Shown here: one piece after another, positions 29,052 through 43,217 of the stretch | Layout of the letters: each line of letters opens with the position of its first letter | How positions within the stretch are numbered: the stretch's first letter is position 1 | From: a phage | Direction: 5' to 3' (one strand) | Sequence record: PZ091942.1 | Length of the DNA stretch: 64,000 bases | Translations under genes and position numbers: made by a program | Notes under the pieces: generated by a model | The model's input: the letters and a program-made list of their open reading frames with translations, nothing else | What the model was told of the DNA's origin: nothing | Database searches by the model: none

Positions 29052-30299
29052 ATGACTACTCGTATCCGTGTTCTTCCGTATGGCCCTTCTGATTCTGTTA
29101 ACGCTCTGGTAACTGCCATTAATGATACTATCCGTGATGAACGTATCAACGCTAACGTAATGGGTCTTCTTTCAGAGAACAGCCGCTGGCGTTCTCGTGA
29201 AGGTGATGTGGTTGTGAACTACGGGAACCGTCGCTATCCTGAATCATTCTTTGGTTCTGCAACTGTTCTGAACAGCACAGCATCTCTGCATATGGCAGCG
29301 AACAAGCGTCGTGCTTTTAGCGTGATGGACCAAGCAGGTGTTAAAACAGTTGAATATACAGATGTTCAATCAACTGCTCAAGAGTGGTCAAACTCTGGCA
29401 ATATTGTGTATGAGCGTCATGAACTGACTGGTCACTCTGGTTCAGGCATTGTTGTTGTAGAGCCTCGTGATTCGGTTGGTCAAGCTGAACTGTACACCAA
29501 AGGTATCCTAGGCCCACGTCGTGAATGGCGTGTCCATGTGTTCAAAGGTGCTATCACCTATGTTCAGAAAAAGATTCGTCGTAACGGTTATCGTGAAGAC
29601 CCTAACTATCGTGAAGATGTTCGTAACCATCACACTGGTTGGGTTTACTCAAGTTCCTTCACAGACGTTCCGAACGACACCTCTCTGATCAACGCAGTGA
29701 AAGCTGTTGAATCAATGGGTCTGGATTTCGGTGCAGTTGATATCATCACCAAAGGTCAAGAAGCATGGGTACTGGAAGTTAATACAGCACCGGGCCTAAC
29801 TGGCACAACTCTGGATATCTACCGTCATAATATCCTTGAGTTTGTTAAAGCTCAAAACCCTCTTTATACTCCTCAGTATAAAGTAGTTTACCAGACTCCT
29901 GTTGAAGCTCCAATCGAAGACGGAGACGGTGAGTTGGTTGCTGACAGTGAAAGTGCTGACGATGAAAACTTTGCACTGGAAGGCCAAGTAGCACAACCGG
30001 TTGATTCAGTTGATGTGGTTCCTGAAGAAATGCAACTGGAAGGTCAGATGAATACTCAAACTATTCGTAATGCACCTACTGGTTATGTGTTGTCTCGTGG
30101 TTATTGGATTGCCAACATCCGTCATGTTCATAACAACCTGCAACCAAATGCAATGGCTGCCAATGTCATTCTGTTCTGTGATGGTCGTAACTTCTACCGC
30201 TCTGGTTGGAACGTTCCGGTCAATCCAGTCCAGATTCATAACCCTCGCAAGTTAGAATCTGTCAATGTTGAAGGTAGTGAAGTAGCAGTAACTCTGTAA
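29052..30299 (+). CDS. ATP-grasp family ligase
   Basis: ORF track; motifs HSGSGIVVVEP, DFGAVDII, EVNTAPGLTG matching ATP-grasp (RimK/GshB-like) fold. Confidence 0.7.
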   Translation: MTTRIRVLPYGPSDSVNALVTAINDTIRDERINANVMGLLSENSRWRSREGDVVVNYGNRRYPESFFGSATVLNSTASLHMAANKRRAFSVMDQAGVKTVEYTDVQSTAQEWSNSGNIVYERHELTGHSGSGIVVVEPRDSVGQAELYTKGILGPRREWRVHVFKGAITYVQKKIRRNGYREDPNYREDVRNHHTGWVYSSSFTDVPNDTSLINAVKAVESMGLDFGAVDIITKGQEAWVLEVNTAPGLTGTTLDIYRHNILEFVKAQNPLYTPQYKVVYQTPVEAPIEDGDGELVADSESADDENFALEGQVAQPVDSVDVVPEEMQLEGQMNTQTIRNAPTGYVLSRGYWIANIRHVHNNLQPNAMAANVILFCDGRNFYRSGWNVPVNPVQIHNPRKLESVNVEGSEVAVTL

Positions 30300-34428: not shown

Positions 34429-35877
34429 ATGATTAAGATTCCATTGTCTGAATTGAACCTTCAAGAAGGAGAAGCCCTCAGTGTAGGGCTTGACCTAATT
34501 CGTAATTTGATCAGAGATAACGTAGTCCCTGATGGTATCTATCCTGTCATTGCAGGTGGTGCTATCCGTGATACGTTCTTCCAAAATCGAACTCCGAATG
34601 ATGTTGATATCTTCCTAGTTCAAGGAGGGCTTCGTTGGAACACTCGTCAGGAAAACAGCCCTGCTAACGTAGGTAATGCTGCACTTTTCCTTGACAACTT
34701 CTTATCTTGGACAGAAAGTAAGGGGCTTCAGGTTACATCTCGACTAATTCAGCCTGTTAACGGGACAACCTATGCTGAAGCGCTTTTCACTTTCCAAGAG
34801 ATTCTGGAAATTGAGATTGATCAAGTTAAAATCCAGATGATGATTAATCTACCTTTGGATATGGATACTTTAAGCCGTCGCTTCCCTATGATCTGTCAAG
34901 GGTTTATGACTCTTGGTAATCTGTATGTGTCAAACGAAGGTTTGTTTGCAATGTCATACACTCGTGACATTCCTGTGGTATCTAGTCGTGAAATGAAGTA
35001 CGTTCACAAGAAGTGGCCTGAAGCAACTGTTGCAGTTTATAGCAGTTCTACCGAATATATGCACCTTGCAATGGGAGCTTTCGGTGAGCCAGAAGTTCAC
35101 CTGATTAGTGATTTAGTTGGACCTATGGCTGGTGTAAATTTATATCAGAATCAGCGTCGTCATTATACCCTGAAGATGATGGAAACTATATTAAACATTC
35201 CTCAGGAAAGGGGTCGTAGTTATCTGGACGAGGAAGTTAACCTACAGACAGAATGGTCTAGTGGATTAACCACTATCGGTGCTGAAGCAATCACACAACC
35301 TTGGACTCCGGGAACCAACAGACGTGACTCTTGGCAACAGGAAGTCCCAAGATTCGCAGCCCCTTCTACAATGGACCCTCGTAATACTTTTAATGGCAGT
35401 TTTGGTAGTGCACGTTCTTCTGGGACGGACACCCACAACCGTACATGGCATGTTCAAGGGGGAACTGCTCGTCCTATTCCTTCTCCGTCAATGGGTGATT
35501 TACAGCGTTCTCGTCGTTCATGGGAAACAGTAAGCTCAGTTGTTCAGGGTCTACGTGCTGGTGATATAGAACGTGTAGAAGTTGGTGATTTGCCAACCCC
35601 TATGGAAGATCGAGTGTCAACTATAGCGGCTCGTGAAGCTGCTCGTGTTGGTTTTCCATCTTTAGCTAATGATGCTAACAATACTCCTCGACCTGTCGGT
35701 CGTCGTAACGGTCTGGCTCACTCTGACACTGCACTTGGTGCAGAACTTCGAGCTGCTGCTCGTGAACTATCTGGTGAGCTTCATAACAACTTAGCAGGTG
35801 TTACACTATCTCGTGAAACAGCTCGCAACATGATTAACAATTTGGCATCATCTGTACAAGGAAATAGAAACTCATGA
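34429..35877 (+). CDS. Pol-beta superfamily nucleotidyltransferase (CCA-adding/poly(A) polymerase-like head domain)
   Basis: ORF track; IAGGAIRD-x9-DVDIF matches GGxVRD...DxD head-domain motif; C-terminal half is R/S/G/T-rich low complexity. Confidence 0.55.
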   Translation: MIKIPLSELNLQEGEALSVGLDLIRNLIRDNVVPDGIYPVIAGGAIRDTFFQNRTPNDVDIFLVQGGLRWNTRQENSPANVGNAALFLDNFLSWTESKGLQVTSRLIQPVNGTTYAEALFTFQEILEIEIDQVKIQMMINLPLDMDTLSRRFPMICQGFMTLGNLYVSNEGLFAMSYTRDIPVVSSREMKYVHKKWPEATVAVYSSSTEYMHLAMGAFGEPEVHLISDLVGPMAGVNLYQNQRRHYTLKMMETILNIPQERGRSYLDEEVNLQTEWSSGLTTIGAEAITQPWTPGTNRRDSWQQEVPRFAAPSTMDPRNTFNGSFGSARSSGTDTHNRTWHVQGGTARPIPSPSMGDLQRSRRSWETVSSVVQGLRAGDIERVEVGDLPTPMEDRVSTIAAREAARVGFPSLANDANNTPRPVGRRNGLAHSDTALGAELRAAARELSGELHNNLAGVTLSRETARNMINNLASSVQGNRNS

Positions 35878-38897: not shown

Positions 38898-39354
38898 TTT
38901 AGAGTATATCCCCGAAACTGGAGAGTTCTTCCGAAATGGTAAGAAGTTAGGAGGAACTCGAAGTAAGTACATAACCCTACGGTTTAAAGGGAAGGTACAC
39001 AAAGCTCATAAAGTGGCATGGTTCTTTTATTATGGAGAATGGCCTTCTTCTCAGATAGATCATATCGACAGAAACAAGAAGAACAACTCAATACAGAACT
39101 TAAGACTGGTAGACACTTCGACAAACTGCCACAACCAGTTCGGGGCTAGAGTATCAAACAAGGAAACAGGGCTTCAAGGTGTTAAGGTTGTCAAATATAG
39201 ATCAGGGACTATTAGATATAGAGCTGTTATCTGTATTGATAAAGTAGACATACATCTAGGTATGTATGGCACTGCCGAAGAAGCCCATCAAGTTTACATG
39301 AATCGAAAAAAGGAACTTTTAATTGAACGAACAACTACAAGCAACACTGATTGA
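38884..39354 (+). CDS. HNH homing endonuclease
   Basis: ORF track; IDHIDRNKKNNSIQNLRL HNH motif; sits between trx-like and thyX-like genes. Confidence 0.7.
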   Translation: MVIDDLEYIPETGEFFRNGKKLGGTRSKYITLRFKGKVHKAHKVAWFFYYGEWPSSQIDHIDRNKKNNSIQNLRLVDTSTNCHNQFGARVSNKETGLQGVKVVKYRSGTIRYRAVICIDKVDIHLGMYGTAEEAHQVYMNRKKELLIERTTTSNTD

Positions 39355-39976
39355 AGCAATGGGTAGTGACAAATCTGTAGTCAACGCAGCTAGGGTATCT
39401 TTCGGTGTTGTTCGAGAAGGTGACTTAAATGAGAGAGACACAAAACTTATCAATTTCCTTGCACGGGAAAAACACTGCACGCCTTTCCGTCATCCGACAA
39501 TTAGCTTCCGATGCAAAGCGCCAATCGCAATTGCGAGACAGTTGGGCAAGCATCAAGTTGGATTCTCGTGGAACGAAATGTCCCGGAGGTATAAAGATGG
39601 AGCAGTTGAATGCTTTGTCCCTGAAGAGATTTTTGAAAGACCTTCAGACCTCCATGCAGGTTCGGGGAGCCTCCTTATCGGAGCCAATGGTGAAGCAGCA
39701 AAAGTAGCCTTTGAACGTGCTTATACTTTAGCTGTTCAGACATACGAAGGGTTGTTATCAGAAGGTGTTGCACCAGAACAAGCTCGATTCGTATTGCCTC
39801 AGGGCATGATCACTGAGTGGGTCTGGACAGGTTCTTTATTCGGTTGGTCAGAGTTATGTCGTCAGCGACTGTCAGACCACGCTCAGTATGAAGTACGAGT
39901 GTTTGCATCAACTATTGATGAAGAGCTTCGTAAAATCTACCCAATCTCTTGGGATGCATTACGTGAAGCCCACTAA
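39323..39976 (+). CDS. thyX: flavin-dependent thymidylate synthase (ThyX)-like protein
   Basis: TTG start with AAAGGAA SD; AARVSF, TPFRH, KAPIAIARQ, NEMSRRY, RFVLPQ...WT, SDHAQYE align with T. maritima ThyX; RHR signature reads KHQ. Confidence 0.7.
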   Translation: MNEQLQATLIEAMGSDKSVVNAARVSFGVVREGDLNERDTKLINFLAREKHCTPFRHPTISFRCKAPIAIARQLGKHQVGFSWNEMSRRYKDGAVECFVPEEIFERPSDLHAGSGSLLIGANGEAAKVAFERAYTLAVQTYEGLLSEGVAPEQARFVLPQGMITEWVWTGSLFGWSELCRQRLSDHAQYEVRVFASTIDEELRKIYPISWDALREAH

Positions 39977-40148
39977 AGCATGTAGCTTCTGTCGAAAGCA
40001 GAAGCTTCTTATCAATTTCAAGCTGAACGAGGAAACAGGTTTGGGTCATGCTTTTTGTCATGATTGCAGGCACTACCTCGAACAGAAGCAATACATAAAC
40101 TGGTTGCATTACTGCAACCCTAACATCTATAAGCACAAGGTTATCTAA

Positions 40149-40628
40149 ATGAAAGCTATTTTTGAAGGAAGGGAGTATGATGTTCCTGATTGGGTTAAAT
40201 ACATAGCTCGTGACTATGATAATCTGGTTTGGGCATATGGAGACGTAAGACCTGTGTTTAATGAAAACACTGGTAGTTGGTCTAACATGTCAAAATTACC
40301 AGGATTTATTCGGGCACTTGGCTCTTCTAGTCGTCCTGTAGGTTTCGCTGCTGACTCACTTGTTGAGGTTGGTGTTGAAAAGGAAATAGACAAGCCAGAA
40401 ACGATTTGGGTTTTATCTTCAAGCACACCAATCAAGGGAAGTCGTGGGATTTCCTTCTATGTTGAGCCTGTCGCTTACTTCAAAAACAAGCCGACCATTA
40501 ATGCTCTTATGTTAAAGAATATCCCTTATTCGCAAGTTACCACCCTGTTAGACAATGGGACAGTGCTTGTTGAGAATAACGGGACAAATCAAATCTTTTA
40601 TGATTTAGAAGAAAGGGTTTTAGAATGA
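40149..40628 (+). CDS. hypothetical protein
   Basis: ORF track; AAGG SD. Confidence 0.6.
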   Translation: MKAIFEGREYDVPDWVKYIARDYDNLVWAYGDVRPVFNENTGSWSNMSKLPGFIRALGSSSRPVGFAADSLVEVGVEKEIDKPETIWVLSSSTPIKGSRGISFYVEPVAYFKNKPTINALMLKNIPYSQVTTLLDNGTVLVENNGTNQIFYDLEERVLE

Positions 40629-40837
40629 AAGGTTTAGGATTAGGAAAGCACCGTTTTACTTTCCGCATCTCCGACAGGAACCCATACCCAACGAAGATTG
40701 AACCTTACGAGATCATCTCTGAGGTGTTTATCTGGCCTTGGCAGAGTATCTATGATGTTGCTCTTAAGTCCAAGAAGAAGCTGATACCTGTTGGTATTTG
40801 GGCTGATGTTGATTTAATTAAAATCGAAAAGGTTTAA
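40625..40837 (+). CDS. hypothetical protein
   Basis: ORF track; ATGA overlap. Confidence 0.5.
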   Translation: MKGLGLGKHRFTFRISDRNPYPTKIEPYEIISEVFIWPWQSIYDVALKSKKKLIPVGIWADVDLIKIEKV

Positions 40838-40838
40838 A

Positions 40839-41159
40839 ATGATTAATGATAATACATTTAGGACTGGTAACGGAAACGAGATTAGTCCTGCTGAAGTGAT
40901 TAAACGACACAGAACACAGATGCTTATCCACTCCTATTTGTATTATTGGTTGGATGACCCAATCTGGTCTGACGATAAGTGGCAACAAGTGGCTGATGAC
41001 TTAACCACCTTGCAGGAGATGTATCCCGAACCTATTGGATTCTTTGATTCAGAGTTTGAAGGATGGAACGGTTCTACTGGTATGCATCTCCCACATGACG
41101 AGCGTATTGCTTGTATGGCTACTGAAGTATATCGTTTACATAAGGACAAATCAATCTGA
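40839..41159 (+). CDS. NAD-dependent DNA ligase domain-Ia-like protein (tentative)
   Basis: ORF track; IHSYLYYWLDDPIWSDDKWQQVADDLTTLQEMYPEPIGFFDSEFEG resembles LigA N-terminal domain Ia (YxYYVxDxPxISDxEYDxL...LE...PEL...DSP). Confidence 0.5.
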   Translation: MINDNTFRTGNGNEISPAEVIKRHRTQMLIHSYLYYWLDDPIWSDDKWQQVADDLTTLQEMYPEPIGFFDSEFEGWNGSTGMHLPHDERIACMATEVYRLHKDKSI

Positions 41160-41337
41160 AATGTTTTAAATGTGAATCAACTCTTCTCCATTTGAACTCG
41201 AAAGTAATACGGGAGCTTGCCAAAGGCTCCCCGACTAAAGGGAAGAATAAGAAGTTTGTCGAAATTAAGGTTATAGGTATACATTGTTCAGAGTGTAAAT
41301 CCTGTAGCTTCTTATATGAAGAACACGGAGGTAGGAA

Positions 41338-42078
41338 ATGAGTCGTAGAGAATCTCGGAAAGCATCACGGAGAGAATTACGTCGTGAAGCTCTCGTCACC
41401 AAGAAAGGAAAGCGGGAATTTGAAGAAGTAGTTCTTGCTAAGCCGGTAGTACCTCAGAACCAATTCCAGAGTGAGCTACTCAATGCTATCAAGACTAAAC
41501 AAGTGGTGTTCACAGACGCTCCTGCGGGCTGTGGTAAGACGTTCGTCATCACCTCTACTGTCATTGATGCACTGAAGAGTGGTAAGATTCAAAAGATTAT
41601 CATTAGCCGACCCTCTGTTGGCATGGGTAATTCTCTTGGATTACTTCCGGGCGGGCTTCGTGATAAGTTCGAACCATACCTAATGCCTATTGTTGATGTG
41701 ATTACTCAGCGATACGGTAAAGGTTTCTATGAATGTCAGCTTGGTAATGGGAACATTGAGTTTGTACCTCTGGAATATCTCCGTGGTCGATCTTTCAATG
41801 ATGCCATTGTTATTGTGGATGAGTTCCAGAATACAACCAAAGATGAGGCATTCTCTATCATGACCCGCTTGGGTGAAACATCCCAGCTGTTCTGTATGGG
41901 TGACACAAACCAGCACGATATGAAAGGTCGAGAGAGTGGTCTTACTTGGGCTACCGAGTTTATTGATGAGCACGACCTGTATGAGTTCGCTGATATTGTT
42001 GATGGCGACTCAGGTGATATTGTTCGTTCTGGTTTCTGTAAAGCAATTGTTAAAGCTATGGAAAAGGATGGTAATTAA
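41338..42078 (+). CDS. phoH: PhoH-like ATPase
   Basis: ORF track; GGAGG SD; Walker A DAPAGCGKT, Walker B IVDEFQN. Confidence 0.8.
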   Translation: MSRRESRKASRRELRREALVTKKGKREFEEVVLAKPVVPQNQFQSELLNAIKTKQVVFTDAPAGCGKTFVITSTVIDALKSGKIQKIIISRPSVGMGNSLGLLPGGLRDKFEPYLMPIVDVITQRYGKGFYECQLGNGNIEFVPLEYLRGRSFNDAIVIVDEFQNTTKDEAFSIMTRLGETSQLFCMGDTNQHDMKGRESGLTWATEFIDEHDLYEFADIVDGDSGDIVRSGFCKAIVKAMEKDGN

Positions 42079-42264
42079 ATGCAAGTTGCCCTAGTTATCC
42101 GAGACTGTGGTGATGGTACTTCTACCATTGACTTCTACAAAAACATTGAACAAGCATGTTTTGAGTGTGAAGAATTTAATGAAGATACCTGTGTAAATGA
42201 TGGTGAACCAACTATTATTGATGTTCCTGACACTTTTGTACCACCTACAGGGTGGTGTGACTAG
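42079..42264 (+). CDS. hypothetical acidic small protein
   Basis: ORF track; TAAATG overlap; D/E-rich. Confidence 0.5.
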   Translation: MQVALVIRDCGDGTSTIDFYKNIEQACFECEEFNEDTCVNDGEPTIIDVPDTFVPPTGWCD

Positions 42265-42335
42265 GGCTGGCAACTAAAGCCACCCTCTCATAATGTATAC
42301 TCCTTAGTGTACACTGATATGTTAAGGAGTTGTAA

Positions 42336-42650
42336 ATGACTGATAAGGCTAAAAGAGATTATGCACAAGAACGAAGAACTGCAATCGCAAGGGGTGAGAC
42401 CGGCGTTGGTAGCAAGAGCGGAGATGCTCAGCGCCACCGTGCACGTCGCATCGTTGAAAAGCGCGATGGAAAAGCTGCTGTCCGAGGTAAAGATGTTGGA
42501 CACAAACGATCAATCAAGTCGGGAGGTTCTAATGCGTCAAGTAACTTACGTGTTGAATCAATCTCTGGAAATCGCTCGAACGGCGGCAAAAGTGGAGATC
42601 GTGCTGGAAAATCAGCAGGCGGTCGCAAAGGAGCTTTAAGCTCAAGTTAA
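42336..42650 (+). CDS. basic Gly/Arg/Lys-rich protein
   Basis: ORF track; AAGGAG SD 7 nt upstream; NNT-biased codons match other phage genes. Confidence 0.5.
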   Translation: MTDKAKRDYAQERRTAIARGETGVGSKSGDAQRHRARRIVEKRDGKAAVRGKDVGHKRSIKSGGSNASSNLRVESISGNRSNGGKSGDRAGKSAGGRKGALSSS

Positions 42651-42655
42651 TATAA

Positions 42656-42684
42656 GGCTACCCATTTCGGGTGGCCTTTTCTTT
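42656..42684 (+). terminator. rho-independent terminator (UUCG-type loop)
   Basis: GGCTACCC-ATTTC-GGGTGGCC then TTTTCTTTT. Confidence 0.7.
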
Positions 42685-42706
42685 TATATAACCTAAGGTA
42701 ATAAAT

Positions 42707-42958
42707 ATGTCTAAAGTAACTTATATCACTGTAACTGATTTCTTTCCTTTTCTGGATGTAACTGAAAGCTACACCTTCCCCGTGAGCAATGTTACAAGCT
42801 CTGTTGAGATGATTCAATTTAACCCAACAACAGCTCGTACTAACGTGGCTCTTCGTGGTCCTGATGGCAAGTTCATCTCCTTCCGTGATAAGAGTGTTCC
42901 TAAGCGTATTGCTAAGTCTATTGAAAACTTGAAACCTTTCCCTAACTTTGGTGCATAA
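42707..42958 (+). CDS. hypothetical protein, tandem paralog 1
   Basis: ORF track; TARTNVALRGPDGKFISFRD...NLKPFP. Confidence 0.55.
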   Translation: MSKVTYITVTDFFPFLDVTESYTFPVSNVTSSVEMIQFNPTTARTNVALRGPDGKFISFRDKSVPKRIAKSIENLKPFPNFGA

Positions 42959-42959
42959 T

Positions 42960-43217
42960 ATGAAGATCAGCTTAATCCAAATCCGTGATCATCTCTTTAA
43001 TGGTGATGCTCAGACTCATGATTACAAGGTTAATCAAGGACAACACCCTACCAATCATCTTATTGGAGGGATTTCTCTATTACCTAATAAAACAGCACGG
43101 ACGAATGTAATGATTCGTGGTAAGGATGGTAAATTCCTCTCTTATCGTGACCCTGAAATCTGTGATGATGTTCGTACAGCTATGAACAATCTGAAACCTT
43201 TCCCGACAGTGGAGTAA
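42960..43217 (+). CDS. hypothetical protein, tandem paralog 2
   Basis: ATG 42960 inside track ORF 42948..43217; TARTNVMIRGKDGKFLSYRD...NLKPFP. Confidence 0.5.
   Translation: MKISLIQIRDHLFNGDAQTHDYKVNQGQHPTNHLIGGISLLPNKTARTNVMIRGKDGKFLSYRDPEICDDVRTAMNNLKPFPTVE

Follow-up and report, generated by a model that had tools for sequence, protein, structure and literature searches.

How would a gene be translated whose reading frame holds neither ATG nor GTG? The question is raised by positions 40839-42078 of a 64,000-nucleotide stretch of phage DNA (sequence record PZ091942.1; the whole stretch is called the window below), where a stand-alone gene for the DNA ligase-like N-terminal domain Nlig-Ia is followed by a short zinc-ribbon frame and then by phoH. 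The zinc-ribbon frame, 41144-41341, lies in the -1 frame relative to Nlig-Ia, is preceded by TAA at 41141-41143 and is closed by TGA at 41339-41341; it encodes KCFKCE...CSECKSC. A sequence-only reading of this DNA had reported that the frame is open, holds no ATG or GTG and ends at the phoH start, all of which the sequence bears out, the terminal TGA overlapping the phoH ATG (41338-41340) as ATGA. Its further statement that the frame lacks any canonical start holds for ATG and GTG but not for TTG, since one is present at 41192, where initiation would remove the first CxxC. Three explanations had been offered: initiation at a non-canonical codon, a programmed frameshift fusing Nlig-Ia to the zinc ribbon, or decay of a former ligase. 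The evidence below supports the first, and we consider it probable, with good confidence, that the frame is a stand-alone gene initiating at CUG 41156, with a Shine-Dalgarno motif and upstream termination as probable helpers.

A tblastn search with the 61 residues encoded from codon 41156 found full-length matches in 107 phage records, all of them Gordonclarkvirinae or Salmonella 7-11-type phages, and the peptide aligns end to end with the profile phrog_14369 (positions 1-61 of 61, E 2.6e-24). Because of these two results, the "startless" frame is judged by homology to be a real conserved gene, not a chance open reading frame (ORF), and it is a member of a known PHROG. The corresponding gene of phiEco32, phi32_61, is annotated and begins MKCSRCEG; it shares with the window protein 57% identity over 61 residues, the same four cysteines and the same ELAKGSPTKGKNK loop. 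Across the family the invariant cysteines are C3, C6, C44 and C47, so that of the CxxC...CxxCxxC pattern first proposed for this peptide the CxxC...CxxC part is conserved, while the third cysteine of the CxxCxxC varies among homologs. The family is narrow: a search of 5.8 billion proteins yielded nine clusters at 90%. An exhaustive hidden Markov model (HMM) search of 1.8 billion 50% representatives returned five matches, four of which are stand-alone proteins of 56-62 residues (E 5e-10 or better); the fifth is marginal (E 1.2e-4) and concerns a 414-residue protein in which the short matching stretch occurs six times. Database homologs are 55-65 residues long, stand alone, and begin at profile position 1. 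An AlphaFold2 model of the protein has a zinc-ribbon fold (predicted local distance difference test score, pLDDT, 85.8), with the zinc ribbons of ZPR1, NrdR and TFIIS as structural neighbors. Searched by sequence against PDB chains the protein gave no match even at E 10, and Pfam returned for the frame only a sub-threshold Thioredoxin_3 hit (E 0.088) that is not meaningful.

The codon aligned with residue 1 was extracted at every zinc-ribbon locus. It is ATG in phiEco32, in 7-11 and at three further loci (L013, L014 and L015), and GTG in KBNP1711, NJ01, Paul, FS2B, phiEc_1 and one more (L012). In the clade to which the window belongs it is CTG, at 41156-41158 in window coordinates, in 17 of 17 loci: the window itself, ECBP2 (two loci), 4E8 (two), Bas86, Bas87, Bas88, TH34, TH42, EK010, vB_EcoP-101114UKE3 (UKE3), a Shigella sonnei assembly contig, and four IMG/VR or metagenome contigs. 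Those four were the matches returned when an ATG at this position was sought among close relatives in IMG/VR and metagenome contigs, and all four carry CTG. A sequencing error at 41156 is ruled out by the agreement of 17 independent assemblies. Whichever of the three codons is present, it directly precedes K/A-C-x-x-C. Upstream of the CTG only four codons are open (GQIN or GQIY), none of them canonical, and in the sub-clade of Bas88, TH34 and TH42 the window's TTG at 41192 is itself CTG, leaving no ATG, GTG or TTG across the 65-codon frame.

The Shine-Dalgarno-like motif UAAGGA precedes the CTG at a suitable distance (Table 1). Its duplex with the 3' end of 16S rRNA, at -5.9 kcal/mol, is the strongest among the orthologous zinc-ribbon starts, the others ranging from +0.6 to -4.2 kcal/mol. 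Relative to phiEco32 the motif arises through changes that are synonymous in Nlig-Ia, AAA GAT becoming AAG GAC.

Substitutions within the CTG clade indicate that the zinc-ribbon frame is under purifying selection there. Between the window and TH42/Bas88 there are 10.8 synonymous and 7.2 nonsynonymous differences, giving a synonymous rate (dS) of 0.36, a nonsynonymous rate (dN) of 0.052 and a ratio, omega, of 0.14; within the clade omega ranges from 0.12 to 0.16, and the deficit of nonsynonymous change has a binomial p of about 2.5e-4. Codons 2-12, which lie upstream of the TTG, show one change only, and it is synonymous. A substitution of T or A for C at 41156 would leave the Nlig-Ia residue unchanged (ATC to ATT or ATA) and supply the zinc ribbon with a TTG or an ATG; neither occurs in the 17 loci, an absence compatible with selection for weak expression. 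Taken together, the aligned start position, the missing alternatives, the purifying selection and the UAAGGA motif make CTG 41156 most likely the initiation codon. Because this start is a rare codon, annotators disagree over the gene: it is omitted from ECBP2, Bas88 and EK010, called as a TTG-truncated 49-residue product in Bas86, Bas87 and UKE3, and called as a 61-residue product from the CTG in phage 4E8 (GenBank OQ689734) and in the NCBI annotation of Shigella contig AAURJN010000002.

Across all lineages the first codon of the zinc ribbon sits between -6 and +13 nt from the stop of the preceding ORF, with gaps of at most 6 nt. KBNP1711, Paul and NJ01 have GTGA at this junction, phiEco32 has an overlap of 14 nt and the 7-11 group a gap of 0-3 nt; in the window the junction is CTGA, the geometry of translational coupling. 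Termination-reinitiation at four-nucleotide NUGA overlaps is a known means of translational coupling (Huber et al. 2019, PMC6728339; Yoo and RajBhandary 2008, PMC2268962), and a Shine-Dalgarno sequence stabilizes re-initiating complexes (PMC2268962). There is a precedent for CUG initiation too: reporter assays in E. coli put it at about 1-2% of the AUG level (Hecht et al., bioRxiv 10.1101/063800). We propose that the window clade switched its zinc-ribbon initiation codon from ATG or GTG to CTG, and that translation would begin at CUG 41156 with initiator tRNA, aided by the UAAGGA 9 nt upstream. Ribosomes ending Nlig-Ia at the overlapping UGA (C-UGA) may be handed straight to this start site, and such coupling to Nlig-Ia termination probably contributes. 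The outcome would be a low output of zinc ribbon tied to translation of the upstream gene; we infer initiation at a low level because CUG is weak and disfavored by initiation factor 3 (IF3), but is helped by the Shine-Dalgarno motif and by the upstream ribosomes delivered to it.

Several points weigh against this proposal. IF3 discriminates against non-canonical codons, re-initiation included (PMC2268962), and with CUG as weak as it is the output of zinc ribbon could be very low. The selection test is based on about 18 substitutions in a gene of 61 codons, and the retention of C at 41156 is by itself non-significant at a dS of about 0.4. Two codons before the CTG, at 41150 and 3 nt from the UAAGGA motif, lies an in-frame ATC, a near-cognate codon that is equally weak. 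For these phages, literature searches returned neither proteomic nor ribosome-profiling data.

That ATC would yield a product of 63 residues, M-N-L-K-C..., and it is conserved in the clade, with a near-cognate strength similar to that of CUG. Against initiation there stand its spacing of only 3 nt from UAAGGA, the replacement of N by Y between sub-clades at the codon separating ATC from CTG, and the fact that all homologs begin exactly one residue ahead of the Cys knuckle, with position 1 of the PHROG profile aligning to the CTG codon; we regard it as very improbable. A start at TTG 41192 is improbable as well. TTG is a canonical bacterial start, an ORF listing gives the resulting 49-residue ORF, and three of the records named above annotate it, yet it drops two of the four invariant zinc ligands, excludes codons 2-12 even though these have undergone no nonsynonymous change, is replaced by CTG in the Bas88/TH34/TH42 sub-clade, and has no evident Shine-Dalgarno-like motif directly upstream (acucuucuccau).

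The two remaining alternatives bear on how the zinc ribbon relates to Nlig-Ia. A programmed -1 frameshift near 41144-41159, giving a fusion of about 165 residues, would suit a frame that is open from four codons ahead of the Nlig-Ia stop, lies at -1 to it and has no ATG or GTG. The 12-nt overlap window GGACAAATCAATCTGA, however, contains no X XXY YYZ slippery heptamer, and the folding of the RNA at 41110-41210, which could have revealed a structure that stimulates frameshifting or hides the start, cannot be told from that of shuffled sequence (z 0.05). Nor are frame and adjacency conserved. The phiEco32 zinc ribbon, a 1-nt indel apart from the window arrangement, lies at +1 with its own ATG; one or two other genes separate it from Nlig-Ia in Paul, FS2B, phiEc_1 and a metagenome contig (L033); in KBNP1711 it follows unrelated small ORFs; and in 7-11 it stands behind unrelated ORFs, adjoining neither PhoH nor any Nlig-Ia gene. 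On three further metagenomic contigs a 60-residue homolog (P0007) lies between nrdD, for the anaerobic ribonucleotide reductase, and nrdG, for its activase, with a Macro-domain gene upstream (L034 3958-4140, L035 2925-3107, L036 1791-1973). Nlig-Ia in turn is carried by over 100 phages that infect other hosts, none of them among the 107 zinc-ribbon records, whose phages are those of Escherichia, Shigella and Salmonella or unnamed, and the exhaustive HMM search of 1.8 billion representatives, in which the clear homologs are all stand-alone, found no fused Nlig-Ia-zinc-ribbon protein. By these comparisons the two are independent genes that are neighbors in Gordonclarkvirinae, and the frameshift is extremely improbable. 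A last alternative has only a small chance of being right: the window clade would have lost the start codon of the zinc-ribbon ORF, leaving a recent pseudogene that is no longer translated, and the two genes together would be what is left of a degraded ligase. In its favor are the missing ATG and GTG and the 178-nt gap that the annotators of ECBP2, Bas88 and EK010 left empty. The idea of a decayed ligase finds no support in the distribution of either partner: solo Nlig-Ia proteins form a conserved family spread widely among phages (228 records; Iyer et al. 2022), and the zinc ribbon also occurs without an adjacent Nlig-Ia in 7-11-type phages, in KBNP1711 and on the nrdD/nrdG contigs.

The Nlig-Ia product matches the Pfam family PF22745, "Nlig-Ia, DNA ligase-like N-terminal NAD+-binding domain", over positions 1-91 of 92 (E 8e-34; 116.6 bits, where the curated cut-off is 27 bits), and phrog_6466 at E 2.7e-38, which upholds the earlier suggestion that it resembles domain Ia of LigA. 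Direct similarity to LigA is weak (residues 14-53 of Thermus filiformis LigA, within domain Ia, E 0.2); the match to the homologous N-terminal domain via the Pfam profile is strong. The window protein has none of the adenylation (KxDG), OB, Zn-finger, HhH and BRCT domains of LigA; no Pfam ligase adenylation or OB match was found, and the ORFs that follow are the zinc ribbon and PhoH, in agreement with the sequence-only reading that no KxDG domain comes next. The Bas88 record lists no other ligase in its first 50 kb. By tblastn the domain is found in 228 phage records, including Erwinia jumbo, Arthrobacter, Clostridium, Rhodococcus and Streptococcus phages, most of them labelled "DNA ligase". 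On the evidence of its domain content the product is not a ligase, and that label is misleading in many records.

The gene is already published. Solo Nlig-Ia proteins were described in 81 phages, with ECBP2_0056 as a named example (Iyer, Burroughs, Anantharaman and Aravind 2022, Viruses 14:1977, PMC9503650, section 3.5.1), and the window gene is its direct ortholog, the protein being 98-100% identical to those of ECBP2 and 4E8 (98% for ECBP2_0056). The same authors predicted that the solo protein acts as an NAD+ sensor or as an NAD+ shield against host NADases, asserted conservation of the NAD+/NMN-contacting residues, and reported the ligase module to be absent from solo-Nlig-Ia phages with 1 exception among 81 (PMC9503650). 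The window protein shares this architecture without material difference: about 106 residues, domain Ia only, and no ligase catalytic module annotated in its genome.

Two proteins encoded elsewhere in the window were considered as a ligase catalytic subunit acting in trans, and both were ruled out. The 482-residue "nucleotidyltransferase" of 34429-35877 shows by eye a GGxxRD...DxD motif of Pol-beta type and matches neither a ligase nor anything in Pfam or the PDB, and the 415-residue ATP-grasp protein of 29052-30299 is RimK-like. The former belongs to phrog_12715; its N-terminal motif, GGxxRD...DVD, is of Pol-beta or CCA-adding type, its C-terminal half of ~200 residues is of low complexity, with abundant Ser, Arg and Gly, and its gene is conserved beside those for a DNA polymerase exonuclease subunit and a dCTP deaminase. 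The latter matches phrog_2599, "ribosomal protein S6 glutaminyl transferase", at E 1.9e-171, with Pfam RimK slightly under its cut-off.

Table 1. Features of the Nlig-Ia, zinc-ribbon and phoH locus, in window coordinates.
Feature	Position	Strand	Evidence or remark
Solo Nlig-Ia gene, 106 residues, ATG to TGA; ortholog of ECBP2_0056 and phi32_62	41159 (end), 40839 (start)	+	PF22745, phrog_6466
Shine-Dalgarno-like UAAGGA within the Nlig-Ia 3' end, 9 nt upstream of the CTG	41141-41146	+	sequence
Zinc-ribbon gene with inferred CTG start (61 codons and a stop); orthologous to phi32_61 of phiEco32, phrog_14369	41156-41341	+	
CTGA, zinc-ribbon start overlapping the Nlig-Ia TGA stop; translational-coupling geometry	41156-41159	+	sequence
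In-frame TTG, 49-residue truncated product, used by some annotators	41192-41194	+	probably not the start
phoH-like ATPase gene	41338-42078	+	Pfam PF02562 E 7.2e-56; ATG overlaps zinc-ribbon stop as ATGA

The window is that of a phiEco32-like (Suseptimavirus/ECBP2-type) E. coli podophage. A megablast search with 40000-42200 matched 96 phage records, every one a phiEco32-like podophage of E. coli or Shigella (Gordonclarkvirinae); TH34, Bas88, ECBP2, IME267 and 4E8 come closest, at 90-92% identity. The locus belongs to a co-directional block of early/middle genes that runs from thioredoxin and ThyX through small ORFs, the 106-residue ORF, the "startless" frame and PhoH to, later, the DNA polymerase. 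Because of a promoter and terminator scan of 39000-43000, in which promoter-like sites were fewer than in shuffles, the Nlig-Ia and zinc-ribbon genes appear to lie inside one transcription unit. The clearest intrinsic-terminator-like hairpin in that region, at 42654-42678 (10 pairs, 6 of them GC, then a T-rich tail), lies 3' of a 104-residue ORF at 42336-42650 and is probably the end of the unit that carries Nlig-Ia, the zinc ribbon and phoH.

Other genes of the block deserve brief description. The thyX gene (39323-39976, PF02511-type, 217 residues) has a TTG start in the window and a different upstream junction, aaaaaaggaacttttaaTTG, where Bas88, 4E8, phiEco32 and KBNP1711 have ATG at the same codon with a taaggaa motif in front; it is the second weakened start codon within the operon. 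Overlapping its 3' end is a small Cys-rich ORF with a CxxC...CxxC pattern (39888-40148), 86 residues from its first ATG and annotated as 61 residues in relatives, which matches phrog_15951 (E 4e-21) and, weakly, the Lar-like restriction alleviation family phrog_5558. The next two ORFs, 40149-40628 (159 residues) and 40625-40837 (70 residues, phrog_2042), are missing from some close relatives and found in others, and Bas88 has an extra 70-residue ORF; because these ORFs and the megablast query coverage (61%-94%) differ between close relatives, the stretch from thyX to Nlig-Ia is regarded as a mosaic hot spot. Directly 3' of phoH an acidic, Cys-containing ORF of 61 residues (42079-42264; phrog_13236, E 1e-25), found at the same place in KBNP1711 and Paul and absent in Bas88, 4E8 and ECBP2, is another mosaic insertion.

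The zinc-ribbon gene is always found among genes of nucleotide metabolism and replication: thioredoxin, ThyX, PhoH, NrdD/NrdG and DNA polymerase. Throughout Gordonclarkvirinae an ATGA junction abuts it translationally to phoH. Because its neighbors are thioredoxin, ThyX and PhoH and, distantly, NrdD/NrdG, our guess is that it encodes a small accessory protein of the nucleotide-metabolism module, binding nucleic acid or protein, and in any more specific role we place low confidence. The placement between nrdD and nrdG hints at a connection to nucleotide metabolism and not to PhoH specifically. A more ambitious reading would make the CTG a selected expression device: the zinc ribbon would be made only by ribosomes that finish Nlig-Ia and re-initiate at C-UGA with the strengthened Shine-Dalgarno motif, its level would be a small fixed fraction of that of Nlig-Ia, and the protein would serve as a dosage-sensitive partner or regulator of the PhoH/Nlig-Ia/nucleotide-metabolism module, as NrdR does for nrd. 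We consider this unlikely.

The closest known counterpart of the window gene is phi32_61, which likewise lies directly upstream of phoH with an ATGA overlap; they differ in that phi32_61 has its own ATG and a 14-nt, +1 overlap with the gene before it, whereas the window gene has CTG and a 4-nt, -1 overlap. The AUU of infC is a natural start in E. coli other than AUG, GUG and UUG. With starts of this kind and with NUGA overlaps the window gene shares a near-cognate codon, an upstream Shine-Dalgarno motif and a stop/start overlap of -4 nt. It differs from infC in that the near-cognate codon, whose use we infer, is CUG, in that the gene is a phage gene in which the codon is fixed clade-wide, and in that no autoregulatory logic like that of IF3 and infC is evident. 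Fixed across a clade and accompanied by the CTGA overlap and a stronger Shine-Dalgarno motif, the CTG start is a modest new example of a known phenomenon and no new kind of system.

The finding resolves an annotation conflict for about 20 deposited phage genomes, therapy-candidate and BASEL-collection phages among them. The upstream gene, commonly mislabelled "DNA ligase", is really a solo NAD+-binding domain. The zinc-ribbon gene also provides a natural test case, in E. coli phages, of initiation at CUG where stop and start overlap by 4 nt, for which the related ATG and GTG versions of the same gene are built-in controls, and which may be of use both for the calibration of gene finders and for the study of how weak start codons set protein stoichiometry.

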